This document shows positions 24,255 through 61,649 of a stretch of DNA of 64,000 nucleotides, piece after piece. The notes under the pieces were generated by a model. The model was not told the origin of the DNA and made no database searches. It worked only from the letters and a program-made list of their open reading frames with translations. The DNA lies in the NCBI GenBank assembly GCA_964016885.1, contig OZ024750.1, forward strand, positions 40,362,001 through 40,426,000, read 5' to 3'. This stretch comes from Eledone cirrhosa. Taxonomy: Eukaryota. Every line of letters begins with the position of its first letter. Position 1 is the first letter of the stretch. The position numbers and the translations under genes are program-made.

Positions 24255-24950
24255 TTATATTGCTCTCGCACGTATGTAGCTGGCAAGAGAACAGGCGAAT
24301 ATACCTCCAACTAGCTGTAAAAATCCAAATATATTACAAGTGGTTCCCAAATAGATTTGACGTTTATGCATCCAAGAAAGGATTTTTTTCGAACAACCAT
24401 ATTCATAAATAGAGATCTTGTTTTTAAAGTTATTTCCACATCCGTTTGTTGGAGAAATACAACAAGAATCTGGGACAGTACCATTGCCCAACACACTGTG
24501 CCATTCAATTGGTTTGTGTACACCGCAGCAGGCAAAACGTTCTTGAATATCATCCCATTCTTTTGTAATTGTACTGTTGTAGAGATATTGCTGTTCAGAC
24601 TTCATCATCCTGGCGCTAACAGAATGACTTGCAATTTTTCTCAGCGAAAAAGCTGCAGTTGAGCTGCCAATTTCAACCATTGTTATAATGACGACAAACA
24701 CAGTAAATGTAGCAATATATTTGTAGCTGTTCTTTAGAGCTCCGACAAGACCAAATATTGACATCAGCATGAGAAGAAAACCTAAAGATATGAGCAAGAC
24801 GGTACATAATTTCATATAGGTTCCCAATAAACAGGGATAAGATTCGGTATAATAGAGGCCACCAAGTGTTATAAGAACCGTAGAAGCAATTAGAAAGAGA
24901 ATATTAAGCAAAATTAAAGCCGTTCTTGTACAAGTTGGACTACATTCCAT
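24255..24950 (-). CDS. Intronless tetraspanin (CD63/TSPAN7-like, 6-Cys EC2), 231 aa from the ATG at 24950
   Basis: Four hydrophobic segments; large extracellular loop EWDDIQERFACCG...EW...VPDSCC...NGCG...YEYGC. The ORF track starts at a TTG (24965); the first ATG gives MECSPTC. Confidence 0.93.
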   Translation of the reverse strand: MECSPTCTRTALILLNILFLIASTVLITLGGLYYTESYPCLLGTYMKLCTVLLISLGFLLMLMSIFGLVGALKNSYKYIATFTVFVVIITMVEIGSSTAAFSLRKIASHSVSARMMKSEQQYLYNSTITKEWDDIQERFACCGVHKPIEWHSVLGNGTVPDSCCISPTNGCGNNFKNKISIYEYGCSKKILSWMHKRQIYLGTTCNIFGFLQLVGGIFACSLASYIRARAI

Positions 24951-25020
24951 GTTTGCTTCTGGCAAAAGAAAATGTTACTAAATGACCGACTATTTATTGA
25001 TCGATAAATAACCTGGCTTT

Positions 25021-25034
25021 ATTCATATGCAAAT
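25021..25034 (-). promoter_or_regulatory. Octamer motif ATTTGCATATGAAT, ~80 bp upstream of the tetraspanin ATG
   Basis: Same orientation and similar spacing as at 60811; followed by AATAAATA ~35 bp downstream. Confidence 0.45.
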
Positions 25035-25599
25035 TTATTTTGGCACCGTGGAGTACATTATACGACTATTGTTAATGAACATAAAATAATGAGTTCTAAT
25101 TTAGGCACAAGGCCAACAATTTGAGCGGGGGAAGGGGAAAGTCGATTAAATCGACTTCAGTAATTCACTGATATTTTTATTTTATCGACCTCAGAAGGAC
25201 AAAAGACAAGGTTGACCTGGGCGGGATTTGAACTCAGAACGTAAAGAGGCGGAATAAATACTTTAAGTAGATGTCCAGTACTCTAAAGACTCTAACTGTT
25301 TCTAATTTTGGCACAAGGCCAGCAATTTGAAGGGAAGGAGAAATTCGATTATATCGACCCAGTGCATTACTGGTACTTTATTTTATCGACTCCGAAAGGA
25401 TGAAAGGCAAAGCTAACCCCAGCGGGATTTGAACTCAGAACGTAAATGGTTGTAACTCTGTGCCACAATGCATGGTTCCGACGTTCTACCGGTTCTATTG
25501 CCAATTCACCACCCATTATCAATCAGAAAATAAATAATAAAAATAATTTTGTAGGAAATCCACAGATTCGTGTGTTTCTGCACATAGTGGAGGGTTACT

Positions 25600-26030
25600 G
25601 CTTCTTCTTCGCCCACTTATTTCTGATAAAGTGTGTAGCTCGGAGCTCAGAGAGTCACTCCAGGTAGAGCTGGCTGCTACTTCTCCGAATTGAGCGATCA
25701 CAGCTCCGATACTATGGGGTCCCAGCGAAGGGTCTTTGGAGTAACGTTATTCGATAGAATGCATAGGTCCGAGATCAGAGAGTCACTCCAGGTAGAGGCC
25801 CTACTTCTCCGAATTGAGAGATCACAGCGTCTGATTCTGTGGGCATGTGGTTAGAATGTCTCGGGAAAGAATCGCTGGACAAAACCAACTGGTAGGAGAC
25901 CCGAGCAAGATGGTTGGATAACATCCATCAGCTCGGCTGGTCACACTTGGGGATCCAGCCGGATCAGTTGATGACAATTTCTTCTGACAGGATCCTCCGG
26001 AAAGAGTGTTTAAGGACTCTGCCCCCTCTC
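25600..26030 (+). mobile_element. RTE-type LINE 3' fragment
   Basis: Remnant of GHVVRM...GRRP...RWLDNI, typical of the RTE ORF C-terminus. An inverted tail piece (cttcttcttcgccc) lies at ~25600-25620. Confidence 0.7.
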
Positions 26031-27752
26031 GGGGTTACTGCTAACAAGATAATTATTTCAAGCGTGTATACAGCAGATTTCATTAGTTTTGTTTATCTTA
26101 AAAGTTACTTTAAAGAAAAGCAACACTCGGTGAAGTTTCAATCTTTTTGTAGTGCAAACATACAAAGGCAAATCTCTGCAAATATGTAACGTTGTTTCAA
26201 ATACGAGTGTCAGCTCACAAGTTCATAGATTGACTATGAAGGAGTGATGCTAGAGCTGTGAAATATGGCATGCTTTAATTTCAACTCTTCTCCAAGGACT
26301 ATGTTGAAAAATAAACTTCATTTGGTCATTCCATGAGAATATTTTGGTCAGCCTATGAACTTTTCAGCCAACCCCGTAAATGTTTTTATTCAACAAATTT
26401 CAACAAAATTATAAAATGTTTACAATGAAAGAGGAGGGGAGGGGGGCAGGAGAAAACAAATATAATAACGAAAGTGTGTGTGTGGTGTGTGTGTGTAAGG
26501 GACGGGGTCCATCAAAGACCCAGGAGCGGTTTCTATCAAATGACTTAAAACAATTATGAAATAATAAACGAGTTCATAAGGTGCAAATTTTGTCCTTTCA
26601 CCCCCCCCACCTCCTCTGTCTGTGTGTGTCTGTGTATGTATGTCTGTGTTTCTGTGTGTATGTCTGTGTCTGTGTGTGAGTGTGTGTGTGTGTGTGTGTG
26701 TCTGTGAGTGTGTCTGTCTGTGTATGTCTGTGCGTGTGTGTCTGTGTATGTATGTCTGTGTATGTATGTTTGTGTTTGTGTGAGTGTGTATGTCTGTGTG
26801 AGTGTGTGTGTCTGTCTGTCTGTCTGTCTGTGTCTGTGTGTGTGTGTCTGTCTGTGTATGTGTGTGTTTATCTGTGTGTCCGTGCGTGTGTGTGTCTATG
26901 TATGTGTCTTTCCTTTTGCGCATGTATGTACTTAATGTAATGGGTGAATTGACAAAGTCGTTGGAACGCAAGACAAAGTGCCTTGCGGTATTTGTTTCGA
27001 CTCTCCATTCTCAGTTGAAATCCTTTAAAGTTCAACTTTGCCTTTCACCCATTTGGGGTAAGGGTTGGGATCAATAAAATAAAGTATCAAAATTAGGAAA
27101 TGGACTGGAGAAATTGTTAGAGCGTCGAATGGGATGTCTTGCGGCATAGTTTCAGCTCTCTCTGTTCTATTTTAAAATCCCGCAATAGTCTACTTGGATA
27201 GTAGTAGACTTAATTTGTCACTCGGTTTAACACACCACCTTACCCCAATCAGTAAATAATGATGCAACTAGGTTCAAATACTCAGCGTCAAGTGTATCCT
27301 TCCAAGTACGATTTGGTGGTCCTCAATGGAGTATAGTTACAGTAATGGTAATTGCGATGGCCAGATATAGATATTTCATAACTTATGTTATTCATAATCT
27401 GCCGTAATACATATTTCTGTGGCGTTAAGGCTGCCATCACGCAACCCCCAACACGACTTCATCAGACGTAATAAGATTGTTATGTAACATTTTTAATGAA
27501 ATACAGGCTATCAATAAATGGACGGACGAGTTCGATGTTGGTTTAATAGGGACGGATTCTCATAAGACCAACGGACCAGCATCCTTTTCCGTCTATAGGT
27601 GTATTTTATAACAATTGATTATGTTTACAGTTATTTTCTGAATTTGAAATTTTCTAAGAAATTCAATCCACTCAAGCTTTGGTGGTTTCTCTCTCCCCAC
27701 CTCTCTCTTTCTCTCTCTCTCCCTCTTTCTCTCTCTCTCTCTCTCTCTCTCA

Positions 27753-27832
<80 letters not shown>

Positions 27833-27835
27833 GTA

Positions 27836-27930
<95 letters not shown>

Positions 27931-28168
27931 GTATATATATGTATATATATATATATACATAATATATATATATATATATACATATGTATGTATGTGTATA
28001 TATATATATATGCACGCACACACATATATATATATATATATGTATTTCGGCTTCAATTGGGGGTAACCACAGAAAGTAAGGTACTCAATACATAGCAGAG
28101 TATATACAATATCTAATATAGGCTTTTACAGGACTAGAACTGTTTCATTCGAATGAGATAGAGTGACA

Positions 28169-28245
<77 letters not shown>

Positions 28246-28634
28246 CTATGCCTTAATTCAACTATAACTACAAAACATTGGAATAATCTCGAAATTTTTC
28301 GCCATAAATTAATGATGTTGACATTTTCACGACTGACTATGTTAGAGTTATTTCGCTAAAATTATACAGAAATTACTAGTGTCCTTGATACACTTATCCC
28401 ATTATAGTATCAAAGCTGGTGGTAACATTTTCCAGAAATTGTTTCAATTATAAGAATCACACTACATTTTTTCCCATGATAAGTAATTACTGCAGTGAGA
28501 CGACTCCAGAATTGTGTTGAATTATTTGTGAAGAAATGTAAAGATGTATTTCACAAGTAAATACTAAACGACCGTGAACTTTCGTGTTTTCATAAACTGC
28601 TTTATTGTAGTATCAGTGACAAGTTTAGGCCTTG

Positions 28635-29108
28635 GAGGGCTCTCTAGGAACTTCAGGTTTGGTGAGTCCCGGGGAACTTCACGTTTGGGGAGCCCGGGGC
28701 ACTTCACGTTTGGGGTCCCGTGGAACTTCAGAGTTAGAGGGTCCCGGGGGAACTTCAGAGCTGGAGGGTCCCGGGGAACTTCAGAGCTGGAGGGGTCCCG
28801 GGGAACTTCAGGTTTGGTGGGGCCCGGGGAACTTCAGAGCTGGAGGGGTTCTGGGGAACTTCAGAGTTGGAGGGGTCCCGGGTAACTTCACGTTTTGGGG
28901 GTCCGGGGAACTTCAGGTTTGGTAGGTCCCGGGGAACTTACGTTTGGTGGAGCCCGGGGAACTTCAGGTTTGAGGGTCCCGGGGAACTTCAGGTTTGGTG
29001 GAGCCCGGGGAACTTCACGTTTGGGGGTCCCAGGGAACTTCAGAGTTGGAGGGGTCCCGGGGAACTTCAGAGCTGGAGAGGTCCCGAGGAACTTCAGGTT
29101 TAGTGGGT
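28635..29108. repeat. GC-rich ~26 bp minisatellite
   Basis: Unit similar to ggtcccggggaacttcaggtttggag, about 18 copies. Confidence 0.92.
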
Positions 29109-30495: not shown

Positions 30496-31200
30496 ATGGT
30501 TGAAGATATATCATCCACGGTTATTCGAATCGCTCGCGCTTCAGTCTGGACTTTGTCCTGTTTCATGTGGTGCAATGCTATAGCTACTATTATCCTTGGC
30601 ATCGTAATAGGATCTATTTACGGTGGTACATTGAGCTCGTTCGGAGCTCATTTTCTGCTTTATTCTCTTCTTTTGGTCTCCTTGGGCTTAATATCCATAT
30701 GTCTCGGTGTATACAGCTTACGCTGTTTAAGGGAATACGACTACTTGGGCATGACGATTTTGGGATATTTTGCTATCATTATTGGAGTCGTTCTGCTTGC
30801 GACTGGAATAACTGGCAGTGTGGTGAAGGGTTACAACAAACCAGCTGTTCTCCGTCATTTACAACTTACCCAAAAACATTATACTACCAACGACAATGAT
30901 AAATATGCATGGGATCTTCTTCAGAGCGAACAACACTGTTGTGGAATTCATACTGGCACAGATTGGTACAAAGTTCTTGGCAACAATATTGTCCCGAAGA
31001 GCTGTTGCTTTTACAAGTTCCCAAGTTGTGGAGTGGGAGATTCTGGGGAATATCCCGAAGGCTGTTTAGCCAGTTATACTAGTCTCATAGACTTTATTCA
31101 AACATGTCTTTCAGTTTACTGCCTCGTGTGCGGATTACTGTTCTTTTTTATAGGAATTGCTCCAGCACACGCCGCCAAAAAAGTTTATGATACTTATTGA
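30496..31200 (+). CDS. Intronless divergent tetraspanin, 234 aa
   Basis: Four TM segments; AWDLLQSEQHCCG...DW...VPKSCC...PSCG...PEGC; uninterrupted ORF. Confidence 0.92.
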   Translation: MVEDISSTVIRIARASVWTLSCFMWCNAIATIILGIVIGSIYGGTLSSFGAHFLLYSLLLVSLGLISICLGVYSLRCLREYDYLGMTILGYFAIIIGVVLLATGITGSVVKGYNKPAVLRHLQLTQKHYTTNDNDKYAWDLLQSEQHCCGIHTGTDWYKVLGNNIVPKSCCFYKFPSCGVGDSGEYPEGCLASYTSLIDFIQTCLSVYCLVCGLLFFFIGIAPAHAAKKVYDTY

Positions 31201-34138: not shown

Positions 34139-34583
34139 TCGTAGATACCTATAGATATATTGAAATGAGTATTCTTTATAAACCTGGTGTTGCATGTATC
34201 TGACAGATGGGTCTTATACTAAAGCAGAGGTTCTCAAACTTTTTGGCCCCACGCTCCTTACGGCCACGTAATACCCTCATCGTCCCCCACCTCTGTTTCC
34301 AGAGAGACCTGCTTACAGGCAAATTGTATATAATTAATAAAATCTTTAATAAATAATATAGACTACGTATAAATAAATATATATTTGATATTTTACTGTT
34401 GTGCGTAAATTTATATTGCAAAACTAAAGCTCGAATTCCAAGCTTTTATTCAATATCTAGAATATAAAAACAGTAATTAGTCTTGAAGAAATATAACAAT
34501 AATATTTGTAAGAAAAGAAAGATATGCAATAAAACAAAGTTATATTGAGGATAGATGAACTTCATAACATTCTTCGCCGATTT

Positions 34584-35506
34584 TTATTGTTCTTCAATAT
34601 AGCGCTTGGGGGCTACGCGTATACGATTGCTTCGTCTCACGGTGTCAACAGGAACTTGCGGTAGGATGCTAGTGCTATTTGCCACGGGATTTAAATCGAT
34701 CACGGTTTCATCTAAGAGTAGATCGTTACTGTGGTCGATGTTAAGTAGTTTCGGCATATCAGCAGGACTGCTAATTGAACTGTTTTCTTGGATGGATTGA
34801 TTGTCATTATTTTGACAATTAATTGGGCCAGGGGAGAGGTCTGCTGTTGAGACTGTACTAGATCTTCCATTTTGATATCTGACAACCGCGAAATTAGCAT
34901 TCACCATCTGTTCGATAATAACTTTATTCACTAATGGGTCGTTCTTTGTACGAATAAAGTTTCTAATATAGGCGTCGTTTCCAACTCTAAGCCAATCTGG
35001 TAGGCAAAATCCTAAGGAACCCTTTCGATCGAATCTAAATATGCAGTTATGGGGTGTCTCATTAGTCGCTGTACAGAGAAGTGATCGTTACGAGGCAAGA
35101 ACTTCTGGTATATCTTCCCACTTAGTTTCTTTAAGTTTGCGCGAGTTAATTATGCATTGAATTCCTTTCCAGAGGACTCCGTTGTAGCGCTCGTTTTTGG
35201 CCATTTCCTTGTGGATGGTACGGCGAAGTGCGCGTGTGGGATATACCATTGGACAAGCAGAAATGATCGAATTCTTTGGAGAGAAACTGAGTTCCTCGAT
35301 CGGAGTGTATGAATGAGGGAGCTCCGAATATTGAGAAGATTTGTTTGAGACAGTTAATGACAGTGTTTGAGGTGATGTCACGCATACCGAAAGCAAAAGG
35401 GAATCTGCTGAATTCGTCTACTGCAGTCAATAAGTATGTTTCCTGCTTTTGAAGATTTTGGTTTTGGTCCAACGATATCGATTGACAGACGTTCGAACGG
35501 CCTTGT
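34584..35506 (-). pseudogene. Frameshifted Gypsy integrase core and C-terminus
   Basis: LTAVDEFSRFPFA, IHSDRGTQF, TSPYHPQGNG, ERYNG and RRSNR..APKRY are split across frames. Confidence 0.88.
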
Positions 35507-37555
35507 TCACTTAATGAGTTTAGCAGATGGAGGCTTGAAGAATTTTGGCTTGCACTCCAAACATGATGCGTAGTTTTTGACGACGTCGCGGATTTCGTCT
35601 ACGGAAAAGGGCAGGTTATGGCGTCGGATATAATCGTAAAATCTAGTTACTCCTGGGTGTGCTAGTTGGTCATGGAGTACTTTTAAATCACAGGGTGGCG
35701 ATATAGCTGCAACGATTCTTGAAAGACAATCGGCTTGGGTGTTGAGGTAGCCAGGTTTGTAGTCAATGTCAAATTGATGCTCTGATAGTTCTAAACGCCA
35801 GCGAGATATTTTATCATTTTTGATTCGTGATTTATTACTCGAGAAAATGAAGGCTACTGATTTTTGGTCAGTCCGTATAATCGTATGAAAACACTTCACG
35901 TATTGCGACCATCTCCGTACAGCTTCAATAATAGCCATAGCTTCTCGCTCCACAGTTGATTGTCTTTTCTCGGACGGTGTAAGTGTTCTCGACAGGAAGG
36001 CCACGGGCCGTTCGTTTTGAGAAAGTATAGCTCCGATTGCATCGCCAGGCGCATCTGTTTCTATTACCAATGCGTGGCCAGTTTTAAGAGGAATGCTAAG
36101 AGCGGCATTAGAGATATCTGCTTTCATGGCTTGTATTACATCTGTAGCTACTTTATTCAGCGGGAACGAGTCAGCTTGTAATAGTGGTTGGATTTTCTTC
36201 GAGTAATCGGCAATCCACCTAGCATTATAGGCTAGGAATCCAAGGAATCGTTTCAGTTGTTGTTTGTTTGTTGGGATTGGGTAGTCTAGTAGGGTTTTGA
36301 TGCGTTCCTTATCGGGTTTCTTTACTCCGTTCTGAATGTTATAACCTAGTATAGATATACTCGTTTGGCCGATTTTCCTCTTATCCGAGTTAAGAGTGAG
36401 GTTTTCTGTCTTCACGGCGTTTAAGAATGCTTCCACATTTCTATCATGTTCAGCTTTGGTATTTCCCGTGACTATGACGTTGTCAATATAGGCACAGGTT
36501 TTGAGTAAGTTATATTTCTCTATAACTTGATCCATAATTCTCTGAAAAACAGGTACAGCGTTAGTTACGCCGAAGGGTAAGCGGCAGAATTGGTAGAGTT
36601 TGTGATTAGCCTGAAATGCCGTTAGAGGTTTGTCGATTTTTCTTAAAGGTACTTGGTGATACGCTGATTTGAGGTCGAATTCTGAAAAATATTTATCCTG
36701 TACCACTTTGTTAACAACATCCTCAATGTCGGGGGATGGATAGGCATCCAATTGTGTATACTTATTAATTGTCTGGGAGTAGTCTACCACGAGTCGAGGT
36801 TTCTTTCCGTGTACTATGAAGCACTGAGCTCGCCAAGGTGAAATTGATTCCTCAATGATACCAGCTTCTAGGAGGCGAGTTATTTCGGACTTAATAAAAT
36901 TGTCGTCTCTCTTGTTAATGAAACGTCCCTTAGTGGCAATCGGCTTGATATTTGTCTCGGCTAAATCGTGGAAGACAAGAGGCGGATTAACTTCTATTGT
37001 TGGAAAGGTACAGCATAGTTGATTTGAAAATTTCATGGGAGGCCGGGCACCGCCAAGGTGGAGAATAATAGAGCTATGCTGGGTGAGGACATCCATTCTG
37101 ATAATGACGTCTGCGACAAGACTTTTTGCAGTGATTAGGTTCACAGAGTATTCCTCGCTGTAGATACATATTGGTATGGATGTAGTACCAGTCGTCTTTA
37201 ATATTTTATTGTCGGCTAGTGTGATTGCCCGTTTTTCTTGTTTTACGCTCAAGTTTAATTCAGTTGCTATGCTATGACGTATAAACGAATCTGTGGAACC
37301 AGGATCGATTAAGGCCTTTAGTGTGGTGTCTTTTATAGTTATCGGGCAGAGAATAGCTTTAGACTGTTTGCCGGTATTTAATGAACATATAAGTGAGGCT
37401 GCTTGCTTACTGCTTTGGCAGTCAGATTTACAGACTGATTGCCAGTGGCCGATCTTCCCACAAGAATAGCATGTCTTTTCTAGCTGGGCATTTATTTCTA
37501 GGATGCCTAGAAAGTCCACAAAAAAAGCATTTAAATTCACTTTGGGAATTAGCAT
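35507..37555 (-). pseudogene. Gypsy gag Zn-knuckle + protease + RT + RNase H + integrase N-terminus
   Basis: CYSCGKIGHWQSVC; LIDPGST; RLVVDY, FDLKSAYHQV, LPFG, YIDN (second catalytic D changed to N); ETDAPG, EREAMA, IRTDQKS; H...HPG...CLEC. Confidence 0.9.
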
Positions 37556-37956
37556 TTTTCAAGTATTTCAAGTATTTCAGCTTTTATTCAATATCTAGAA
37601 TATAAAAACAGTAATTAGTCTTGAAGAAATATAACAATAATATTTGTAAGAAAAGAAAGATATGCAATAAAACAAAGTTATATTGAGGATAGATGAACTT
37701 CATAACATTTACTATATTTGATATTTATTATATCTCTACCCTCCACCATCACCCTCTTAGGTCCCATTGCCCCTGGACCTTCTCACTGCCATTTGGACGG
37801 AAATATAACGACTAGAGAAAAGTTACACCTCTTGCTAGAAAAAGAAAATTGATTTAAAATCAGAATTGAAGTCGTTTCAGTGGTTCACCCTCCCTCCCAT
37901 ACACACCGTGTGTTTAGAATTATGTTTCCATTATTTAAAATAAATTAACCTTTTTT

Positions 37957-43400: not shown

Positions 43401-45203
43401 GAAAGAGATAGGGGAAGGATTGATCCCAGTAGTTGACTGCTACTTTTTTTATTAACCTCGGCAGGATTTGAACAGTGAGCCGGAACTAAGACTGCAAAGT
43501 ATTGTTTCTGACGTTCTGACGAATGGTAATTCGTCGCCTGACTGAAAGAAGTCTAAACATTTCCAGTATTCTTTGTTTAAATCTAGGTTGACCCAGATGG
43601 CAAAACATTGGCCCAGTCGTAACTTGAGTTAGAGCGACAGATTAAATGTGTTGAGGATCAGAGTTCAAATCCAGTAGAGATCAACTTGGCCATTTATCCT
43701 ATCGGGGTCAACAAATCTTTTGAATGTAGTGGGTTAATGAAGATTGTTAGAGCGTCGGACGGAATGCCTTGCAGCTTCTGTTCTGGGCCTGTACTTTGAG
43801 TAAAAAGAAAAGAATATATATCATCAAACTGGGTCAGCTAATATTAAAACACGAGATGATACTTCGTAAGAGGCCAACTAAACATAAAACAGGTGTGTGT
43901 GTGTGAAAACAAAAACCGTGTTTTAGTATATATTTCGGACAATTCTTCCTTTAAGAAACTTAAAATTTTAGTGAATTCAGCTATTTCTAGCATGTAAAAT
44001 GACCGTATTCGTTTTTTTTTTTCTTTAATGCCAGTGGAAAATACGTGTTTATATATACAATAAATGTATTTAAAAATAAACAAATATGGTGGCTGTTATT
44101 AAAAAAAAATTTACGAAGTCTTCGGTACAAATTTAAATTTATTACAAATGAATTGGATTAGAAAGCGGTTCTCAGTTTTCAATTGGACGATATAACTAAA
44201 TGAATAAAATGGAATCTGAATCTTTAGCCAGAATTAAATAGTGTAAAGCCACTAAGTAGGGGGAGATTTGATTGCTATTTCTAGCAGGTCAAGCGACCAC
44301 GAGGAAGCTCTACCCATGGCTAGTTATGTGTTAGTTACAGCCAACAAGGTTTTCATGAATCTGAACGACATTGGTATTAACTAGAATTCGACAATGGCTG
44401 ACAAAGTTTAAATACGGAGGACGTCATTTCTCAACGGTTTTCCAACGATTTATTTCGGAATCTGTTTTGTTTTTATCTTGAACCTTTTTTTTTTTTTTTT
44501 CGCCCATTGCTATGTATTTTCAATATCCTCTATGTATATTGGGGTCTAGAAAGTTCAACAGATGTCTTGAGTATAAATACTGCTTACAATTTCAGGTTTG
44601 CCAATCATCAAATACGAACAAAGCTTCTTTGTACGGGCTTTCATTTTATTTCGAATGTCATTACATTTCAGTGTCACAGTTTCGTTTTATTTCCGGGTAT
44701 ATCGGACCCTACTCTTTACCAATGCCAAAACTAACAATTTCCAGCAATTACTGGAAAGTATTCAAATTTGGTTAAGTTTTTGGAAGTTTCGGCGTTGAGT
44801 GAAATATCAGCCATCTCCATTAAAAGATGAAGTTCAGAGACCAACTTAGATACATATTGAACTTTGACCAGCTAGAGATCTGTTGAATCTGAATCAATGG
44901 AATAATGAATATCTGAAAAGATCATGGGAGGAGGGGGGGGGGGGTTAACCATCAAAGATCATTAGTTATTGATGTACAAAAGCGTCGTTCATATTTTGAA
45001 GTTAATATAGAACAATCCACAGGTTTTAAGTCTTGTGTTAAAGATTTGGGATTAATTATTCGTATTAACAAGCATAGTTAAATGTGAAACTATCTTGAAA
45101 TTTAGTATTTCATTTTCATCGATAACAGATAACAGTAGTAGTACTAAGATAAAAACAGTCAACAGTGATATAACAATATAAAAATATAAATATTTCAAAT
45201 ACA

Positions 45204-45935
45204 TCATAGATTATCATATTTATCCAATTTCTTATCAAGATAGATGGGGATTGACAGTAAGCAGAGATGGAAAACACTAGATATAACCCCGAATACAGAA
45301 ATACCAACTTGCAAAGAATTGGTATAAAAAACGTAACATTTGAGACAGTCGTTGCGGTAATAGTTGTATTTAGCGATGGCTTGGTAGCCACATCCTGGTG
45401 ATTTAGAAATACAACACGAATCAGGAAGATTATGGTCTCCCAAAATTCTAAACCATTCGTTCGGTGAATTAATGCCACAGCATTGCATTAGATTTTGAGT
45501 TGTGTTCCATGCGATTTGTGAAGTAGGGTCATTTATATAGTTCCTTTGAGCAGATTCCATGCGATTGTTAACTTCACCATGAACGTAATTTGTTGCTCCG
45601 ATACCAACAAAACCAGTGAGACACTGTGAAACTCCTAGTATTACTACGAAACATGTCATAACATTTAAGCCAAAGGTACTATTCGTTATCAACGAACCCA
45701 CACCAATTACTGCGAGGACGAAATAGATTATTCCTAAACATAGCAGAAAAATAGCAATAAGCTGGAAATGGCCACCAAATATATTTAAATCGCCACCGTA
45801 ATGAATTTGTATTATGATCCCAAATGCAGTGGAGAAGAAGGCACTACATAATAACAAAGAACTAAGAAGTCCAAAACAACATCTCGTGCAGCTTAGTGTC
45901 CATTGTCTCACGGTGTCTGTTGGAAGGTCAGCCAT
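45204..45935 (-). CDS. Intronless tetraspanin, 243 aa (left copy of the inverted pair)
   Basis: Four TM segments; AWNTTQNLMQCCG...EW...LPDSCC...PGCG...NDCLKC; C-terminal YDNL. Confidence 0.93.
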   Translation of the reverse strand: MADLPTDTVRQWTLSCTRCCFGLLSSLLLCSAFFSTAFGIIIQIHYGGDLNIFGGHFQLIAIFLLCLGIIYFVLAVIGVGSLITNSTFGLNVMTCFVVILGVSQCLTGFVGIGATNYVHGEVNNRMESAQRNYINDPTSQIAWNTTQNLMQCCGINSPNEWFRILGDHNLPDSCCISKSPGCGYQAIAKYNYYRNDCLKCYVFYTNSLQVGISVFGVISSVFHLCLLSIPIYLDKKLDKYDNL

Positions 45936-46397
45936 ATTGATTTTTCGAGTTGAATTGTTTTAATGGCTCTGTATCAGACGGCTGATATTTGTAATTGTAT
46001 AAGCTAATAGTCTCGCCTAATTTGTGAGGGGTTAATTTAAATATGAAAAGAATGTCTTGAAACAGTCGAAAAGGGGAGAATAAGATTATATATATATAGA
46101 GCGAGAGATGGGAGAGAGATAATATCTATAGAAGTCGGTAGGCAAGATCGATTCCAGAAGAATTCATTTGATATTAATTTTCAGAAATAGTTAACTTAAG
46201 TCTAGACACTATAAATAATATATTTCTTGGTTATTTCTGTTGTTATACCAGAAGAAATAGAGACCTGCCTTAGTTTCTAGATAAATCTCAAATAAGGTGA
46301 TTGACCTTGGACATTTTATGGTCTTTATATTAAAAGATGGATTTTTTTAACAATGAAAACTAAAGTCGGATATAGGTTGCTCTGTTTTCTTGTTTTT

Positions 46398-47000
46398 CCC
46401 TTCTTCGCCCATTTATTCCTGGGAGGGTCGTGGGGGCAGAGTCCTCAAACACTCCATCTAGCGGGTCCTGTCAGAAGCAACAGTCTCCAACTGATCCGAC
46501 TAGATCCCCCAAGCGTGGCCAGCCAAGCTCATGGATGTTATCCAACCATCTTACTCGGGGTTTATCCCTGAGTCTCTTACCTGTTGGTTTTGCCCATTAA
46601 ATCTGTCCAACGATTCTTTCCTGGGACATTCTAACCACATGTCCATAGTATCGGAGCTGTGATCTCTCAATTCGGAGAAGTAGCAGCTCTACCTGGAGTG
46701 ACTCTCCAGTGATTCTTTCCTGGGACATTCTAACCACATGTCTATATTATCACAGCTGTGATCTCTCAATTCGGTGAAGTAGCAGCTCTACCTGGAGTGA
46801 CTCTCCAGTGATTCTTTCCTGGGACATTCTAACCACATGTCTATATTATCACAGCTGTGATCTCTCAATTCGGTGAAGTAGCAGCTCTACCTGGAGTGAC
46901 TCTCCAGTGATCCTTTCCTGAGATATTCTAACCACATGTCCGTATTATCGGAGCTGTGATCCCTCAATTCGGAGAAGTAGCAGCTCTACATGGAGTGCTT
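46398..47000 (-). mobile_element. RTE-type LINE 3' fragment with a ~99 bp internal unit amplified x4
   Basis: Same sequence family as 25640-26030; tandem units from ~46612. The counterpart in the other arm (~49130-49390) has a single unit. Confidence 0.75.
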
Positions 47001-47495
47001 TGTTTTCATTGTTTAAAATACATATATATTTTTTACAACTCTGTAGCCTGTGTACATTCTTCAAAGTTACCTTATGCGACACATGGGCAACCACAAAAAC
47101 TAAAGCCCTAAAAGAATTGTCTTGATGAATCTACCAATAAAACTCTGTATTGAGTTCTATCAACATAATCTGTCTCACCTTAAATAGGTGAATATACAAC
47201 ATACATACACACACACACACACATATATATATATAACGCACCAGAGTACTCAATACTTAGGGTAGTAGAGTGGGTAATAGGAAAATGTATAACCCCGACG
47301 GCAGAGCTCCAGAAATAGCCGTCGAAACGGCTGGAGCTCTGCCGTCGGGGTTATACATTTTCATATATATATATGTGTATGTATGTATGTATGTTGTATA
47401 TTCACCTATTTAAGGTGGGACAGATTATGTTTATAGAACTCAATACAGAGTTTTATTGGTAGATTCATCAAGACAATTCTTTTATATATGTGTGT

Positions 47496-47545
<50 letters not shown>

Positions 47546-48120
47546 AAAAGAGTCAGAATCCCTGGTCCTGACTCTTTTCCTATTACCCACTCTACTACCC
47601 ACAGTATTGAGTACTCTGGTGCGTTATGGTCCACCTGGTTCCTTACCACACTTCCTTCGTTATATATATATATATATATGTAAAAGGTAAACAGAAATAA
47701 CAACACAATCGGTACAGTATATGGAAGGTATATATTAGGTTAACGCTTGAAATAGCAGGAAAAGGGTCTGAACGTTTCGGACGCTGGTCAACAAAGAAAG
47801 TGTGGTAAAAAACCAGGTGGACCATAATGCACCTGAGTACTCGATACTTAAGTTAGTAGAGTGGGTAATAGGAAAAGAGTCAGGACACCAACGGCTGAGC
47901 TCCGGCCGTTTCGACACCTAGATCCAAACTCAGTTCGGATCTACCAAACTACTAAAACACATATATATTTGTATATGGCCTACAATTTATGTACATGTTA
48001 TGTTTATAACATATCGAAGTTTTCTTACCATTTAAGAGTGCAAAGAGCTAAACTAATCACTACAACTAAATTGACCAAATTTATCCCACCCCACACAATT
48101 CAGAAATGCTTCCAGCGCCC

Positions 48121-48183
<63 letters not shown>

Positions 48184-48354
48184 AAAAAGAGATGAAATCG
48201 AAAATGCAACTGGAGTCTTATTTTTTTAAAAAATATATATATTTATTTGGTTCCTTTACCGGTTTCGCAGTTCTTCTACTTTTCAAAAGGTGAGCTGAGA
48301 TGGAGGGTCTGTGGTTTTTCTCGGTTATTTTTTATTTTGTAAAAAATCCCTCAC

Positions 48355-48433
<79 letters not shown>

Positions 48434-48569
48434 ACACTGGAAGGTATTATCCGTAGCGGTAGAGCACTCAGTCCATGGGACGAGTTTGGTAGAAGTAGTA
48501 ACACAACGGTTAGTTCACCACACCGAGAACAATTGTTTCACCTTATGCGGATCTTCAGTAATACCAGTC

Positions 48570-48608
48570 CGAGCTGAAGATCTGCATAAGGTGAAACAAC
48601 TGTTCTCG
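48570..48608 (+). ncRNA. Minimal type I hammerhead ribozyme
   Basis: cgag CTGAAGA tctgcataaggt GAAAC aact GTT ctcg. The inverted partner at ~48524-48558 has a palindromic AATT loop. Stem II is weak. Confidence 0.6.
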
Positions 48609-48637
48609 CTGTGGTGAACTAACCGGTTGTGTTACTA

Positions 48638-48701
<64 letters not shown>

Positions 48702-48706
48702 TGTAT

Positions 48707-48946
48707 ATATATGAATGTATATATATAGTGTATTTTGCAATACACTGTATGCTTAATTAAAATAATTTCGAAGACCTTATGCTATTGTTTTAGAGTAGTG
48801 ACAGTCTCACTTACTTTAATTTTCAGCAAAATTAAAGTAAGTGAGACTGTCACTACTCTAAAACAATAGCATAAGGTCTTCGAAATTATTTTAATTAAGC
48901 ATACAGTGTATTGCAAAATACACTATATATACATTCATATATATAT
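48707..48946. repeat. Near-perfect palindrome (~115 bp arms, 4 nt loop)
   Basis: ...cttactttaatttt cagc aaaattaaagtaag... Confidence 0.92.
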
Positions 48947-49665
48947 CGTTATTTCAGAGCACCAATTCTAATTTTTTTTTAATATATATATATATATAAT
49001 TTGATGAATTTACCAATACAGCGTATTGGTAAATTCATTAAGATAATGCTTTTAGGGCTTTAGTTTTTGTGGCAGACCATATGTAACATAAGTTATAAAA
49101 AATATATGTATTTTCAACAATGAAAACAAAGCACTCCAGGTAGAGCCCAACTTCTCCGATTTGAGAGATCACAGATCCGGTACTATGGGAATGCGGTTAG
49201 AATGTCTCAGGAAAGAATCACCGGAGAGTCACTCCAGGTAGACCCCGAGAAAGATGGTTGGATAATATCCATGAGCTTGGCTGGTAACACTTGGGGATAC
49301 AGCCGGATCAGTTGGAGACTGTTGCTTCTGACAGGACCTGCTGGAAGGAGTGTTTGAGGGACTCTGCCCCCACGACCCTCCCAAGAAGAAAACAGAGCAA
49401 CCTTTCTCCGACTTTTGTTTTCATTGTTCAAAGAATCCATCTTTTAATATAAAGACCATAAAATGTCCAAGGTCAATCACCTTATTTGAGATTTATCTAG
49501 AAACTAAGGCAGGTCTCTATTTCTTCTGGTATAACAACAGAAATAACCAAGAAATATATTATTTATAGTGTCTAGACTTAAGTTAACTATTTCTGAAAAT
49601 TAATATCAAATGAATTTTTCTGGAATCGATCTTGCCTACCGACTTCTATAGATATTATCTCTCTC

Positions 49666-49746
<81 letters not shown>

Positions 49747-49784
49747 ATTAAATAAATGGAAAACTATATTTATAAAACCATATC

Positions 49785-49850
49785 TATTTCATTATATATA
49801 TTTCGGGGATATCATATTAACAATATGCTATGCCTTCATCAGACAAAATA
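49785..49850 (-). ncRNA. Type I hammerhead ribozyme (same family as 2114-2179)
   Basis: tattttgt CTGATGA aggcatagcatatt-gtt-aatatgatatcccc GAAA t-atat-a TA atgaaata. Confidence 0.72.
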
Positions 49851-50141
49851 CAATATAAACAGTTTTATAGATAACAATTTTAAATATAACTTTACATGTA
49901 TATATATATATATACATGTATATATATATATATACATACATATATATATATACATATAATATATATATATACATATAAATATAATATATATATAATATAT
50001 ATAATATATATATATAATACATATATATATAATATATATAATATATATAATATATATATAATACATATAAATATAATATATATATAATATATATATACAT
50101 ATATATATACATATAAATATATATACATTTAAATATAACTT

Positions 50142-50185
<44 letters not shown>

Positions 50186-50292
50186 CATGCATGTATGTAA
50201 TCTTATTCTCCCCTTTTCGACTGTTTCAAGACATTCTTTTCATATTTAAATTAACCCCTCACAAATTAGGCGAGACTATTAGCTTATACAAT

Positions 50293-50303
50293 TATAAATA
50301 CCA
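50293..50303 (+). promoter_or_regulatory. Candidate TATA box TATAAATACCA
   Basis: 58 bp upstream of ATG 50351; the same 11-mer occurs at 30360, upstream of the 30496 gene. Confidence 0.45.
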
Positions 50304-50350
50304 GCCGTCTGATACAGAGCCATTAAAACAATAGAACTCGAAAAATCAAT

Positions 50351-51091
50351 ATGGCAGACCTTTCAGCAGACGCCGTGAGACAATGGAAGCTAAGCTGCAC
50401 GAGATGTTGTTTCGCACTTCTTAGTTCTTTGCTATTATGTAGTGCCTTCTTCGCCATTGCATTTGGGAGCATACTACAAATTCATTACGGTGGAGATTTA
50501 AATATATTTGGAGGCCATTTCCAGCTTATTGCTATTTTTCTGCTATGTTTAGGAATAATCTACTTCGTCATCGCAGTAATTGGTGTGGGTTCGTTGATAA
50601 TGAAGAGTACTGTTGGCTTAACTGTTATGGCATGTTTTGTAATAATACTAGCAGTTTCACAGTGTCTTATTGGTTTTATTGGTATCGGAGCAACACGCTA
50701 TGTTCAGGGTGCTGTTAAAAATCGCATGGAATCTGCTCAAAGGAACTATATAAATGACTCTACTTCACAAATCGCATGGAACACAACTCAAAATCTAATG
50801 AAATGCTGTGGCATTAATTCACCGAACGAATGGTTTAGAATTTTGGGAGACCATAATCTTCCTGATTCGTGTTGTATTTCTAAATCGCCAGGATGTGGCT
50901 ACGAAGCCATTGCTGAAGACAACTATTACCACAACGACTGTCTCAAATGTTACGTTTTTTATACCAATTTTTTCCAACTTGGTATTTCTGTATTCGGGGT
51001 TATATCTAGTGTCTTCTATCTCTGCATACTATCAATCCCGATCCATCTTGAAAAGAAATTGGATAAAGATGATAATCTAGGACATATTTGA
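50351..51091 (+). CDS. Intronless tetraspanin, 246 aa (right copy of the inverted pair)
   Basis: About 85% aa identity to 45204..45935 (37 differences over 243 aa by manual count); same Cys pattern. Confidence 0.93.
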   Translation: MADLSADAVRQWKLSCTRCCFALLSSLLLCSAFFAIAFGSILQIHYGGDLNIFGGHFQLIAIFLLCLGIIYFVIAVIGVGSLIMKSTVGLTVMACFVIILAVSQCLIGFIGIGATRYVQGAVKNRMESAQRNYINDSTSQIAWNTTQNLMKCCGINSPNEWFRILGDHNLPDSCCISKSPGCGYEAIAEDNYYHNDCLKCYVFYTNFFQLGISVFGVISSVFYLCILSIPIHLEKKLDKDDNLGHI

Positions 51092-51643
51092 AATATTTAT
51101 TATATTTTTATATTGTTATATCACTGTTGACTGTTTTTATCTTAGTACTACTACTGTTATCGATGAAAATGAAATACTATATTTCAAGATAGTTTCACTT
51201 TTATCTATGCTTGTTAATACGAATAATTAATCCCAAATCTTTAACACGAAACTTAAAAACTGTGGATTGTTCTATATTAACTTTAAAATATGAACGACGC
51301 TTTTGTACACCAATAACTAATGATCTTTGATGGTTAACCCCCCCCCCCCCCCCTCCTCCCATGATTTGTTTCTGCTGGGATTACTTTTCCAACGGCAAAT
51401 ATTGCTCTCCGATTAAGTCGGATCAATTTCAAGACAACTGGTGATCCATTTTTTTTTTTTTTTTTTTTTTTGGTCGCCAAATTAAATCTGGTTATGTTTC
51501 ATATAACACTTTACTTACAAAGAACTCAATACTTGGCTGTTTGTATTCCATTTATTTTACTAGTTTAATTTGGTATATAGTTTCTGCCATACCAATTCTT
51601 ATGGAATCATATTCAATGAACAATTACTACCAATAGAATTACC

Positions 51644-51687
<44 letters not shown>

Positions 51688-51708
51688 TATAATATATATA
51701 TAATATAT

Positions 51709-51745
<37 letters not shown>

Positions 51746-53539
51746 TATATAATATATATATAATATATATATAATATATTATATAATATATTATATAATA
51801 TATATATAATATATATATAATATATTATATTATATATATATATATAATATATTATATTATATATATATAATATATATATAATATATTATATTATATATAT
51901 ATAATATATATATAATATATTATATTATATATATATATATATATATATAATGCTTCAAACAGCACGAACTCTAATCTAAACATTCTGTTCAGATATTCAT
52001 TATTCCATTATGATTGATTCAACAGATCTCTAGCTGGTCAAAGTTCAATATGTATCTAAGTTGGTCTCTGAACTTCATCCTTTAATGGAGATGGCTGATA
52101 TTTCACTCAACGCAGAAACTTCCAAAAACTTAACCAAATTTGAATACTTTCCAGTAATTGCTGGAAATTGTTAGTTTTGGCATTGGTAAAGAGTAGGGTC
52201 CGAAAATAAAACGAAACTCTGTGACACTGAAATGTAATGACATTCGAAATAAAATGAAAGCCCGTACAAAGAAGCTTTGTTCGTATTTGATGGTTGGCGA
52301 ACCTGAAATTGTAAGCAGTATTTATACTCAAGACATCTGTTGAGAACTTTCTAGACCCCAATATACATAGAGGATATTGAAAATACATAGCAATGGGCGA
52401 AAAAAAAAAAAAAAAGGTTCAAGATAAAAACAAAACATTCAGAAATAAATCGTTGGAAAACCGTTGAGAAATGACGTCCTCCGTATTTAAACTTTGTCAG
52501 CCATTGTCGAACTCTAGTTAATACCAATGTCGTTCAGATTCATGACAACCTTGTTGGCTGTAACTAACACATAACTAGCCATGGGTAGAGCTTCCTCGTG
52601 GTCGCTTGACCTGCTAGAAATAGCAATCAAATTTCCCCCTACTTAGTGGCCCTATCTTAAATAGGGAAGACGCGCACAATATTTCTGGCTAAAGATTCAG
52701 ATTCCATTTTATTCATTTAGTTATATCGTCCAGTTGAAAACTGAGAACCGCTTTCTAATCCAATTCACGGCTGACATGAAATTCATTTGTAATAAATTTA
52801 AATTTGTACCAAAGACTTCGTAAATTTTTTTTTTTTAATAACTGTAATGTCTTGAGCTGTAATTTTAATAATAGCAACCATATTTGTTTATTTTTAAATA
52901 AATTTATTGTACACATAAACACGTATTTTCCACTGGTATTACCGATTTAAACAAAAGAATACTGAAAATGGTTAGACTTCTTTCAGGAAATTACTGGCTT
53001 AATCTTTGATTTGACGAATATATACACCTCCAAGCCGGCGAATTACCATTCGTTAGAACGTCAGATACAATACTTTGCAGTCTTAGTTCCGGTTCACTGT
53101 TCAAATCCTGCCGAGGTCAACTTTGCCTTTCATCCTTTCAAGATCGATAAAGAAGTAGCGGTCAACTACTGGGATCGATCCTTCCCCTATCTCCTTCTCA
53201 CTCCCGTTCTCACTTTCAAGGACGGTGGATTGGCAGTATCGGTAAAGGGTCAGACGCCATGCTTTGACGCATAGTTATGGCCTTTGCCATTCTGAGTTCA
53301 AATCCCGCCGAGGTTAACTTTGCCTTTCATCCTTACGGGGTCGATAAAATAAAGTATCAGTAATGTATTGGGATAATTACTGGCCTTGTGCCAAAAGTAG
53401 AAACAATTATCTCGCTTTCTATATTTCTCTGGAAGAAATCTGTATTTAGACCTGGAGAGACGGATGGTCCCCCCCCCCCCCGGTTTAAATCGTGCACTAG
53501 AAACGGCGTATGTTAATACGGCACCGCTATGGCTCTTGG

Positions 53540-56207: not shown

Positions 56208-56250
<43 letters not shown>

Positions 56251-56417: not shown

Positions 56418-56450
<33 letters not shown>

Positions 56451-57912: not shown

Positions 57913-58023
<111 letters not shown>

Positions 58024-58789
58024 GAATTGAGAAAGAGATACAGAAGAATTGACCTCAGTATTAGACTGGTACTTTTTTTATCGACCTTGAATGGATTAAA
58101 AGCAAAGTTGGCCTCGGCTGAATTTGAACTCAGAGAGTCGAAACGAAAAACGCAAGACATTCTATCCAACGTTCTATCGACTCTACCATTTCGCTGCCCT
58201 ACACATTAAGTATATAGACATGTAAACCTGTTATATTTCCGTATTTTCCTGTAGAAAGGATGAGCAGCCTATTGCACATTACATATCAATGATGTAAGCA
58301 CATTTCAGGAGATCTCAATAAGGATCAATAATCGGTTAAGGGATTTTTTAAATATATTTTTTAAAGACTCGATCGACAAGATCCCAGATCTCATTTGCTT
58401 ACTGAGTGGGGTGGACCTCGTCATATCGGACCAAGGAAACAATGTTTCCATTGGTCCTTTCATTGCCGATACTATCTACTGGTCGTAACTCCTAGCAAAA
58501 AGACCAACGTGAAATAAAGTGTCTTGCTCAAGGACATACATAACACATCACCAGGTCCGAGAATTGAACTCGCAACCTCACCATTGCGAATCCAACTCTA
58601 TAACCACTAATCCATATATCCCTTCTTTACTTCTTTACAACAATTTGTTTAATTTAATATCTTATTAGTATTGTGGCGAGGGGGGGGGGGTATCCGTAAA
58701 AATATCGAGGTGTTTAGGGGTCGTGACGAAATAAACTTGGAAATCTTGGGTTCACAGTATACCCTGTATGTTTAGAGGCTTAATGTGAG

Positions 58790-59085
58790 ACAGTGTTTAC
58801 AGTGAACAGCAGTGGTGTAATAGATAAGGTAGTGTCTACAGTGAACAGCGGTGGTGTAATACATAAGGTAGTCTTTACAATGAACAACACTGGTATAATA
58901 CACACGGAAATGTTTATAGTGAACAACGGTGGTCTAATACATAAGGTAGTGCATACAGTGAACAACGGTCGTCTAATACATAAGGTAGTGTTTACAGTGA
59001 ACAGCGGTGGTGTAATAGATAAGGTAGTGTTTACAGTGAACAGCGGTGGTGTAATACATAAGATAGTGTTTGCAGTGAACAACGC
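58790..59085. repeat. 39 bp minisatellite
   Basis: Unit gtgtttacagtgaacagcggtggtgtaatacataaggta, about 7.5 copies. Confidence 0.92.
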
Positions 59086-59294
59086 TGTTATCACCCACAA
59101 ACATTGCACTTCAGAAGCAGTTCCTAGTCCTTGGCAGTGAGTCCTCAGTGATTACCAGTTTGACTTCAGTGGAGGTAGGTTTACCGAAAACGTTTTCTCT
59201 TATGTCACTTTGGTGAATGCAGTGTCATTACAATGAGGAGTAGGGGGTGTTTTGTATGTTAGTATGAATGAAGCCCTTAAATGTTTGTATAGGG

Positions 59295-59700
59295 CAGTGG
59301 TCCCCCAACCTTTTGTGCACCATGCCCCTCCACAACATCTAAAAAAATTGTTGTTTCCCCTTTTGACATGAAAACACCAATGATCAACTGCAAAGTGTAA
59401 ACAAATTGGTATATAAGTGGTGCCAAATGTACAATAACATGTGGTGGAGGAGGTGAGACAGGTGTTTCTGACAGTAATGTGTACCAAAGTTACCTTGGAG
59501 TAGGTGGTGCCAGATGTATAATAACATATGGAGGAGGTGAGACAGGAGTTTCTGACCATAATGTGTACCAAAGTTACCTTGGTGTAAAAGTAATAAAGTA
59601 AAACCTAAGTTTTGTTCTCGTTAACAACATTTTCAAATGGCCCTCTTAAATATTCAAATTGCGCTCCTGTGTGGTGTGCGCCCCACGTTGGGAATGACTG
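59295..59700. mobile_element. hAT-type MITE
   Basis: TIRs CAGTGGTCCCCAAC / GTTGGGAATGACTG; perfect 8 bp TSD GTATAGGG; internal ~84 bp duplication. Confidence 0.88.
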
Positions 59701-60499
59701 GTATAGGGTGATAGGTCGGGGAGGATTGTCCAGCAAATTTATCGTTGTTCTTAGTTAGTTTCCTTTATCATTAGTTTTAGAGTAGTTTTGTTGTGGGGTT
59801 AGAAGAGATCACAACACACGTGAAACCGATCGATATTTCACAATAGAAATCCCAAATATTACTGAGAGATTTATAAAGACCTTCATCAGTCACAAATAAC
59901 CATGGGTTTTGCACCTAGAAACTTCCTTTCTGAGGCACAAGCCCGGAAAAGGTGTTTGCAGTATTTGTTCTGACTCCTCTCTGAGTTCAAATCTCACCAA
60001 GGTCAGCTTTACCTTTCATCCTTTCAAGGGCGATAAAAATGTACCAGTCAAGTACTGGTCGATTGTACCACTATATTTTTTTCTCACTTCCTTCCTCTCA
60101 CTCTCTTTCCCCCATTCCTTTAAAGATGGTAAGGAGAGGGGTTCCACCAAATTTTTTTTAAATGCCCAAGAAACGCCGTATGAAACTATGACGCTGCTAC
60201 GAGTCCATCAGGAGTTACAGGTTCATACATACATAATAAATAGTTTACTTTTCATCTTTTCGAGGTTGATAAAAAAAAGTACCAGTTTAATACTGGCCGT
60301 TTCTTTCTCTGGGTGTCTTTCTAGCCTCTCTCTCACTTTCTACCCTTCTCTGGAAGACCCGGAGAGTGGATGGACTCTGCCAGGCTTAAAATACCCAAGA
60401 AATGTTGTATGCCACTACGGCACCCATACAACTCCATCAAGAGTTACAGGATAAAAGACAAAGACAATTGTTAGTTAACATTTATTTTATAAACGCAGT

Positions 60500-60700
60500 A
60501 TAGAATGTCTCAGGAAAGAATCGCTGGACAGATTTTACTGGCAAAACCGACCGGTAGGAGACCCAGGGGTAGACCCCGAGCAAGATGGTTGGATAACATC
60601 CATGAGCTTGGCTGGAGACGGTTGCTTCTGATAGGACCCACTGGAGGGAGTGTTTGGGGACTCTGCTCTCAGGAATAAGAGGGCGAAGAAGAAAAAGAAG
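60500..60700 (+). mobile_element. RTE-type LINE 3' fragment
   Basis: RMSQERIAGQILLAKPTGRRPRGRPRARWLDNIHELGW followed by a (GAA)n tail. Confidence 0.78.
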
Positions 60701-60810
60701 TAATTCCGAGTTTCAATGGCTTACAATACAATTCGAACCAAAGTTCAACATTTTTCAATGAGAAGTTTATCAATCAATTCATATTCAAATGAATGTAAAA
60801 AAAAACTGTC

Positions 60811-60820
60811 ATTTGCATAT
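60811..60820 (+). promoter_or_regulatory. Octamer (POU) motif ATTTGCAT(AT), 101 bp upstream of the tetraspanin ATG
   Basis: Perfect octamer; Inr-like TCAGT at ~60882. Confidence 0.45.
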
Positions 60821-60911
60821 CAATAGAACACGCTGTTAGTAATATACTTAAAAGACAAGTCTAAAACACCAACAGCTAAGTTTCAGTCAGGACATACAAA
60901 CAGCCAACGCA

Positions 60912-61649
60912 ATGTCAGTGTGCTCGTACTCCGCGAAATATTTACTAGTTCTGCTAAATGTATTCTTTGTGATCGTTTCGTTGGTACTTATTGCGGTCGG
61001 ATCTCTCATGCAGGTATCGTTTCATGTCTATGCTCAGGTGTTCCATCACAGTGTCAGTCTACCTGCTGTGCTAATAATTTCTCTCGGCGTCTTAATATTG
61101 ATGACTTCAATTTTTGGCCTAGTGATCGTCCTGAAAGAAAGATATATTCTGTTATCTGTGTATTCCTGCATACTTGTAGTTCTCGTTATTGCTGAAGTAT
61201 TAATTGGACTGGTCGGTGTTACCTTGAAGACATACGTACGTCAAATTGTCATCCATACTATGGAAATAGCCGAGAAGAAGTTTAACGAGAGCCTTTCTGC
61301 CGCTTACACCTGGAATACTATTCAGAACAACTTGCAGTGTTGCGGTATTTTGAGCTACAAGGAGTGGTATAAATTCTTAAACAAAACGGTACCAGATTCT
61401 TGCTGCATCACCTATGATTACAGCTGTGGTTCCGACGCTATTGAATTCAACAACGTTTACAAGAATGGTTGTGCTAAAGCTATGTTTCACTGGCTCTCTG
61501 AGCACCAGATTGTTATTGGTGGACTTTGTGCTGCTTTTGTCTTACTCAAGATCTTAGCGCTAATGTTAGCGCGCTGTTACGGCAAATATCTGGTGGAATT
61601 TACGACACAACCTAGCTTAACTCCATTCAGATCTTCCAGATGGAAATAG
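60912..61649 (+). CDS. Intronless tetraspanin, CD63-like, 245 aa
   Basis: AKYLLVLLNVFF TM1 with the conserved N; TM3 E; TWNTIQNNLQCCG...EW...VPDSCC...SCG...YKNGC. Confidence 0.95.
   Translation: MSVCSYSAKYLLVLLNVFFVIVSLVLIAVGSLMQVSFHVYAQVFHHSVSLPAVLIISLGVLILMTSIFGLVIVLKERYILLSVYSCILVVLVIAEVLIGLVGVTLKTYVRQIVIHTMEIAEKKFNESLSAAYTWNTIQNNLQCCGILSYKEWYKFLNKTVPDSCCITYDYSCGSDAIEFNNVYKNGCAKAMFHWLSEHQIVIGGLCAAFVLLKILALMLARCYGKYLVEFTTQPSLTPFRSSRWK

Follow-up and report, generated by a model that had tools for sequence, protein, structure and literature searches.

Five tetraspanin genes, each encoded by a single uninterrupted open reading frame (ORF) matching PF00335, lie within 37 kb of the window analyzed here, a stretch of 64,000 nucleotides from the genome of the octopod Eledone cirrhosa. 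In order, these are T1 (24255-24950, minus strand, 231 aa), T2 (30496-31200, plus strand, 234 aa), T3 (45204-45935, minus strand, 243 aa), T4 (50351-51091, plus strand, 246 aa) and T5 (60912-61649, plus strand, 245 aa with a longer tail). All of them pass the PF00335 cut-off of 32.1 bits (58-133 bits), and their outer loops have the pattern W..Q..CCG, W, PxSCC, CG and C in common. At least 51% of the array span consists of recognizable repeats. A preliminary description made from the sequence alone had reported five intact single-ORF tetraspanins amid repeats, all with a six-cysteine outer loop, which is confirmed. Its alternating orientation holds for the first four genes but not for the last two, both of which are on the plus strand (order - + - + +), and the very different sequences it noted are found in all pairs (22-30% identity) except T3 and T4, which are 85% identical. 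The genes were also described as intronless, and this is true of the coding sequence only: T1 has an acceptor-like pyrimidine tract and AG 8 nt 5′ of its ATG, so that an intron in its 5′-UTR is possible.

The array is located on C10 of a 3.0 Gb genome, and its five members are the only PF00335 matches on this chromosome, compared with at least 24 matches genome-wide (150 of 181 candidates scored); their grouping is no chance event. The suggestion that the array may extend beyond the window was not borne out, as a sensitive HMM scan of 100 kb to the left and right detected no sixth member; the best other score (E 0.009) came from a hydrophobic segment. When the genome was searched with T3, T5 and one relative, the matches were confined to the five array genes and a copy on C7, to which the T5 search added weak matches on C24 and C18. 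The nearest recognizable host gene to the right is a TSPEAR-like gene, whose laminin-G and EPTP exons are on the minus strand about 60-77 kb from the window and could serve as an anchor for synteny.

Mobile elements are present both within and outside the array. A young LTR retrotransposon is inserted between T2 and T3 (34441-37709); it has identical terminal repeats of 131 bp and little gag, and its protease, reverse transcriptase and RNase H share one frame (35507-37555, minus strand) with the integrase core in another. To the left of the array, a 1088-aa ORF (6466-9732, minus strand) contains reverse transcriptase-like and GIY-YIG-like motifs, without a Pfam match at E 0.001; we take this combination to be that of a Penelope-type retroelement.

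T1, the array member with the most CD63-like features, retains the polar residues in TM1, TM3 and TM4 and has no terminal YxxPhi, while T2 is the fastest-evolving member. T1 was the sole one of the five proteins to be folded, and its AlphaFold model (pLDDT 84) predicts four long helices, at 5-35, 43-73, 76-102 and 186-230, the large outer loop lying between the third and the fourth. All 10 Foldseek matches of this model at E<=0.001 are tetraspanins, and its outer loop fits that of CD63 most closely (rmsd 1.5 A, 34% identity). The model of the T1 protein of Octopus bimaculoides is longer (355 aa), the extra part being a low-complexity extension for which no match was found upstream of T1 in Eledone. 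A search of the ESM Atlas returned generic tetraspanins only.

The T3/T4 duplication and related copies

T3 and T4 lie in the two arms of an inverted segmental duplication, which are 85-93% similar in a self-BLAST comparison. The left arm (44005-46700, minus strand) carries T3 and its flanks, and the right arm (49132-52962, plus strand) carries T4 along with two stretches of approximately 500-600 bp that contain TA microsatellites and have no counterpart on the left. The alignment of both genes and flanks identifies T4 as a recent inverted DNA duplicate of T3, and the two as the sole recent pair in the array, which agrees with the local amplification previously proposed. Compared with the database entries of octopus, Argonauta and Sepia, this duplication is seen only in the Eledone cirrhosa genome.

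Indels are absent from the 732 coding nucleotides of the pair, compared with 19 in 1885 flanking nucleotides (P about 0.0006), many of which may fall in simple runs. The dN/dS ratio is 0.6, which is not significantly below 1 (p 0.06), and the residues appear to be under weak constraint. When the changes were assigned using the Octopus ortholog, 18 were derived in T4 and 3 in T3, with 16 ambiguous (p 0.0015), so that T4 is the copy that has changed faster; dN was 0.059 in the outer loop versus 0.076 elsewhere. Across 44005-52962, the coding DNA of the two genes differs more than their flanks (7.8% versus 4.2%), and synonymous sites behave likewise, a pattern that does not single out positive selection; candidate causes are conversion of the flanks and mutation bias. 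The C-terminal YxxPhi of T3 (YDNL), also present in its three named orthologs, has been lost in T4.

Outside the array, a T3-like copy was found on C7 (76961530-76962502, minus strand). It reaches from some 26 nt 5′ of the ATG to a 3′ TA tract, is embedded in a tandem nest of (TATG)n-tailed repeats, each about 600 bp long, and has a 345-nt in-frame deletion that removes TM1-TM3 and leaves an open frame of 128 aa. The deletion joint is present in two of three sequencing runs; a spliced intron was considered for the missing segment and rejected, since the ends are not GT-AG. This copy is possibly a retro-insertion, and it could instead reflect capture at the DNA level. If it is a retro-insertion, germ-line transcription would be implied, a hint that comes from one copy only.

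The three sequencing runs, which are contigs of one sample and possibly the assembly's own, contain both the T3 and the T4 form, on contigs that span gene and flanks. They also include a third T3-like variant, corresponding to 45559-45711 of the window, which shows 8 differences as well as a frameshifting deletion of 1 nt. It occurs in two of the three runs and is absent from the assembly, and may represent either an allele or a broken copy that was left unassembled.

Relatives, phylogeny and origin of the array

A search of 1.84 billion representatives, of which the best 150 matches were listed, added many relatives of the array. The closest named proteins belong to Octopus bimaculoides, O. 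sinensis and Argonauta hians. Orthologs of T1, T3 and T5 are present in both Octopus species and those of T1, T2 and T3 in Argonauta. T1 is 80% identical to its ortholog in O. bimaculoides and 75% to that in Argonauta, and the T2 ortholog in Argonauta, a 'tetraspanin-9-like' protein, has 38% identity and is grouped with T2 at 99/98. The orthologs or clade members include XP_014772951, XP_014772953 and XP_052821542 (O. bimaculoides), XP_029658421, XP_029652141 and XP_029658210 (O. sinensis), GAB1597359 (Argonauta hians) and CAE1293097 (Sepia pharaonis); all have automatic names that do not set them apart from canonical CD63 or TSPAN9. The distribution of T1, T2, T3 and T5 orthologs implies that the cluster is old and stable in octopods, and, as the ortholog records of each species apparently share one contig, we infer that it is conserved as a cluster in other octopods. 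Among the best 150 relatives listed, one cluster includes the 'CD63' of Sepia pharaonis, and each of four further sets of clade members apparently comes from one contig. All named clade members are coleoid, and named proteins of chiton, limpet, oyster and clam fall outside. The subfamily thus appears to be lineage-specific, as had been proposed, at the level of coleoid cephalopods and not of Eledone cirrhosa.

Three phylogenetic analyses recovered the array genes in one clade. In a FastTree phylogeny of 257 rows, T1-T5 all belong to one clade of 44 rows (support 0.84), with a gene on C24 just outside; a quick IQ-TREE tree of 72 chosen rows supports the array clade at 99, with the C24 gene inside on a long branch; and a careful tree of 35 rows, a subset of the 72 without T4 and the C24 gene, recovers the clade at 99/100 and nests it in the CD63 group at 98/93. 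The CD63-like founder proposed in the preliminary description is supported, as is the monophyly of the five genes: T1-T5 form one clade inside the CD63 group. T2 joins T3 at 100/100 in the 35-row tree and is sister to T3/T4. T5 is the octopod lineage closest to a 19-row side radiation that holds the cuttlefish protein (72-row tree, 97 SH-aLRT). Forcing the array clade together with CD151 was rejected at the borderline (p-AU 0.044).

The C24 gene (23323154-23323804) is a dispersed single-ORF tetraspanin of 215 aa with orthologs, and no family neighbor was found within about 20 kb of it. The array clade also excludes three single-ORF tetraspanin-like genes located on C4, C17 and C28, which suggests that intron-free tetraspanins have originated repeatedly in this genome.

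The canonical CD63 of E. cirrhosa is located on C18 (19.90-19.98 Mb), where its 7 coding exons extend over 80 kb and are separated by six phase-0 GT-AG introns; the protein ends in YxxPhi and groups with limpet CD63. It was the only match among intron-bearing paralogs in the T5 search. Garcia-Espana et al. 2009 (PMC2650405) define the CD63-like group by six introns and the cysteine pattern CC-CC-C-C and count 4 losses versus 105 gains of tetraspanin introns; no mollusc is among the taxa named in the sections consulted. The C18 introns match the six ancient CD63-like introns in all six cases, and none of the six interrupts the coding sequence of any of T1-T5 or of the C24 relative. Because all six are gone at once and the intron-bearing CD63 is on another chromosome, the data are best explained by a single retroposed founder, and it is likely that one CD63 mRNA was reverse-transcribed in a coleoid ancestor, in line with the retroposed founder envisaged earlier. 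The later copies, to judge from the inverted T3/T4 arms, would have arisen at the DNA level. The flanks of T1, T2, T3 and T5 share nothing alignable beyond common repeats, and traces of a founder poly(A) or target-site duplication would be beyond reach at that age. Octopods and cuttlefish separated roughly 270 million years ago, and this split sets the minimum age of the founder if the cuttlefish-side members share it.

Alternatively, the founder may have originated by DNA duplication, either from CD63 or from some other six-cysteine tetraspanin, and have lost its introns in place or stepwise. The array clade is not sister to this genome's CD63 in the best tree, in which branches are long, and forcing that position lowers the log-likelihood by 6.2 without being rejected (p-AU 0.077). 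The location on a different chromosome also proves little, considering that coleoid genomes are strongly rearranged (PMC9068888). However, the absence of all six introns from the five genes and the C24 relative, together with the rarity of tetraspanin intron loss (PMC2650405), makes such a founder highly improbable.

Regional conservation and sorting motifs

Mean identity among T1, T2, T3 and T5, computed without 13 scaffold columns, as in the two sets of rows compared with it here, is 22% in TM1-3, 15% in outer helices A-B, 32% in the cysteine head and 15% from TM4 to the tail, compared with 44%, 19%, 21% and 43%, respectively, in eight canonical CD63s from several phyla. Twelve rows of the side radiation have values of 29%, 33%, 39% and 25%, although relatives outside the window were gathered with a profile that rewards the cysteine head, which may inflate their head conservation and not that of the array's own four lineages. 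The aligned paralogs of the array thus display the reverse of the canonical CD63 pattern. The membrane-spanning parts of the clade are only 2-32% identical to those of this genome's own CD63. Between orthologs, T1 and T5 are 75-80% identical overall and 87-93% from TM4 to the tail, with the cysteine head being the least conserved part of T5 (62%); the good conservation of these helices between orthologs implies that membrane cores and tails have become fixed in a different form in each paralog.

In tetraspanins, the cysteine pair of the inner loop is a site of palmitoylation, the C-terminal YxxPhi is a lysosomal sorting motif, and the membrane-spanning parts and tails govern lipid binding, palmitoylation-dependent clustering and sorting. 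The six cysteines of the outer loop (CC-CC-C-C) are present in all 43 clade members. The inner-loop pair after TM2 is found in none of them versus 20 of 23 canonical CD63s, and a terminal YxxPhi in 8 of the 43 versus 21 of 23; carriers of the latter within the clade include the T3 lineage and the T2 of Argonauta, and T3 alone has it among T1-T5. The array hence resembles the CD63 (TSPAN30)/CD63-like group, as delimited in PMC2650405, in its six-cysteine pattern, tree nesting, outer-loop fold and partly retained YxxPhi, but differs from it in lacking the six defining introns and the inner-loop CC and in having mostly lost YxxPhi. With none of the six introns in T1-T5, these genes are filed as members of the tetraspanin superfamily that are CD63-derived and outside the canonical CD63 definition.

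Other subfamilies provide precedents for tetraspanins that have diverged, are restricted to certain tissues and give specialized membranes their shape, such as the uroplakins UPK1a/1b and peripherin-2/ROM1; these have the same overall fold as the T1 model but weaker sequence matches. A local cluster of CD63-related tetraspanins is also known in another invertebrate: the Tsp42E genes of Drosophila, which keep their introns. Insect-type CD63 rows fall outside the array clade (the Tsp42E proteins themselves are not in the tree), which points to an independent origin. This cluster, Tsp42Ea-Er, comprises 18 genes versus the five here, with Tsp42Ee and Tsp42Eg as CD63 orthologs (PMC9441712).

Function and significance

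Considering the sequence evidence as a whole, we moderately favor a CD63-derived cluster that originated by one coleoid retroposition and local copying of DNA, and whose products would be tissue-restricted organizers differing in trafficking and membrane partners rather than in outside recognition. An intron-free founder, reverse-transcribed from one CD63 mRNA in the coleoid ancestor, would have given rise to T1-T5; T3 would still be sorted to endosomes or lysosome-related organelles, T1, T2, T4 and T5 may reside more at the cell surface, and the divergent helices may bind other lipids or partners, so that the paralogs would organize membranes in different compartments with different in-membrane partners. 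Divergence in the membrane-spanning parts and tails, which steer sorting and clustering, suggests this role over a recognition repertoire. The conservation of frames and the orthologs in Octopus and Argonauta indirectly suggest that the genes are kept functional. Counting against the organizer role, relaxed constraint can by itself let hydrophobic helices drift even when no new function is gained. As to the site of action, germ line or reproductive tissue is the leading, still tentative, guess, with a hint from the C7 copy inside its (TATG)n-tailed repeat nest. A wider version is rather unlikely: a coleoid-wide, retrogene-born subfamily, which has four to five octopod genes and a far larger number on the cuttlefish side, and which diversified its helices and sorting tails around a nearly fixed outer head, may build a cephalopod-specific membrane structure, examples of which, equally doubtful, would be sperm or spermatophore membranes, pigment granules and iridocyte lamellae.

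The preliminary description leaned towards a diversifying family of surface proteins that could act in exosome, neural, immune or gamete recognition. On such a reading the array would be a young repertoire, still diversifying, and selection would act on the outer loop. Clustered intron-free paralogs of 22-30% identity would be consistent with this, as would the 19-row side radiation (97 SH-aLRT), several members of which are apparently on shared contigs, the strong divergence of outer-loop helices A-B (15%) and the poorly conserved T5 head (62% to its ortholog). However, the cysteine head is the best conserved part between paralogs (32%, and 39% in the 12 side-radiation rows, versus 21% in canonical CD63s), the outer loops of T3 and T4 are no more different than the remainder (dN 0.059 versus 0.076), and four of the five lineages have octopod orthologs and are stable across octopods; with divergence concentrated in the membrane helices and tails, a recognition repertoire is very unlikely and its youth is contradicted. 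If the genes were ordinary birth-and-death duplicates that experience relaxed constraint, overlap partly with CD63 in function and have no distinct role, this would explain the long branches, the lost motifs, the T3/T4 dN/dS of 0.6, the C7 copy with its deletion and the frameshifted T3-like variant in two of three runs. It is nonetheless quite unlikely that this accounts for the array, as T1 and T5 are 75-80% identical to their orthologs (87-93% from TM4 to the tail), meaning that the divergent helices of each lineage are now conserved, and as all frames have stayed open in a span of which about 51% is repetitive.

A search of the full-text literature, beyond whose coverage most subscription papers lie, found no description of the cluster or subfamily; it included sections of PMC11431876, PMC3349304 and PMC9712504, and the terms 'tetraspanin' and 'CD63' are absent from the main text of PMC9068888. 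In PMC9839350, tetraspanin-8 serves as a pan-neuronal marker, and the accessions of the 'CD63-like' markers differ from those of the array orthologs; two peptides listed in the ink proteome of PMC10142993 resemble canonical C18-type CD63. The ortholog accessions are absent from the supplement of this proteome, from five Loligo single-cell files and from the full texts, which has no bearing on expression. The array genes are known so far only under automatic 'CD63-like' names, and with this label on their orthologs, cephalopod work on markers or exosomes can be led astray.

At present this is a gene-family story and not a new mechanism. The sequences point to a real and old cluster of CD63 offshoots that lack coding introns, are apparently confined to coleoids and invert the usual conservation pattern. 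It is a candidate addition to the coleoid-specific gene clusters and has been hidden under the automatic name 'CD63'. T3 and T4, 85% identical and only one of them with the sorting motif, offer a natural test of compartment change in tetraspanins. Members of this superfamily hardly ever lose introns and usually conserve their helices while varying the outer head, and the subfamily appears to break both rules.
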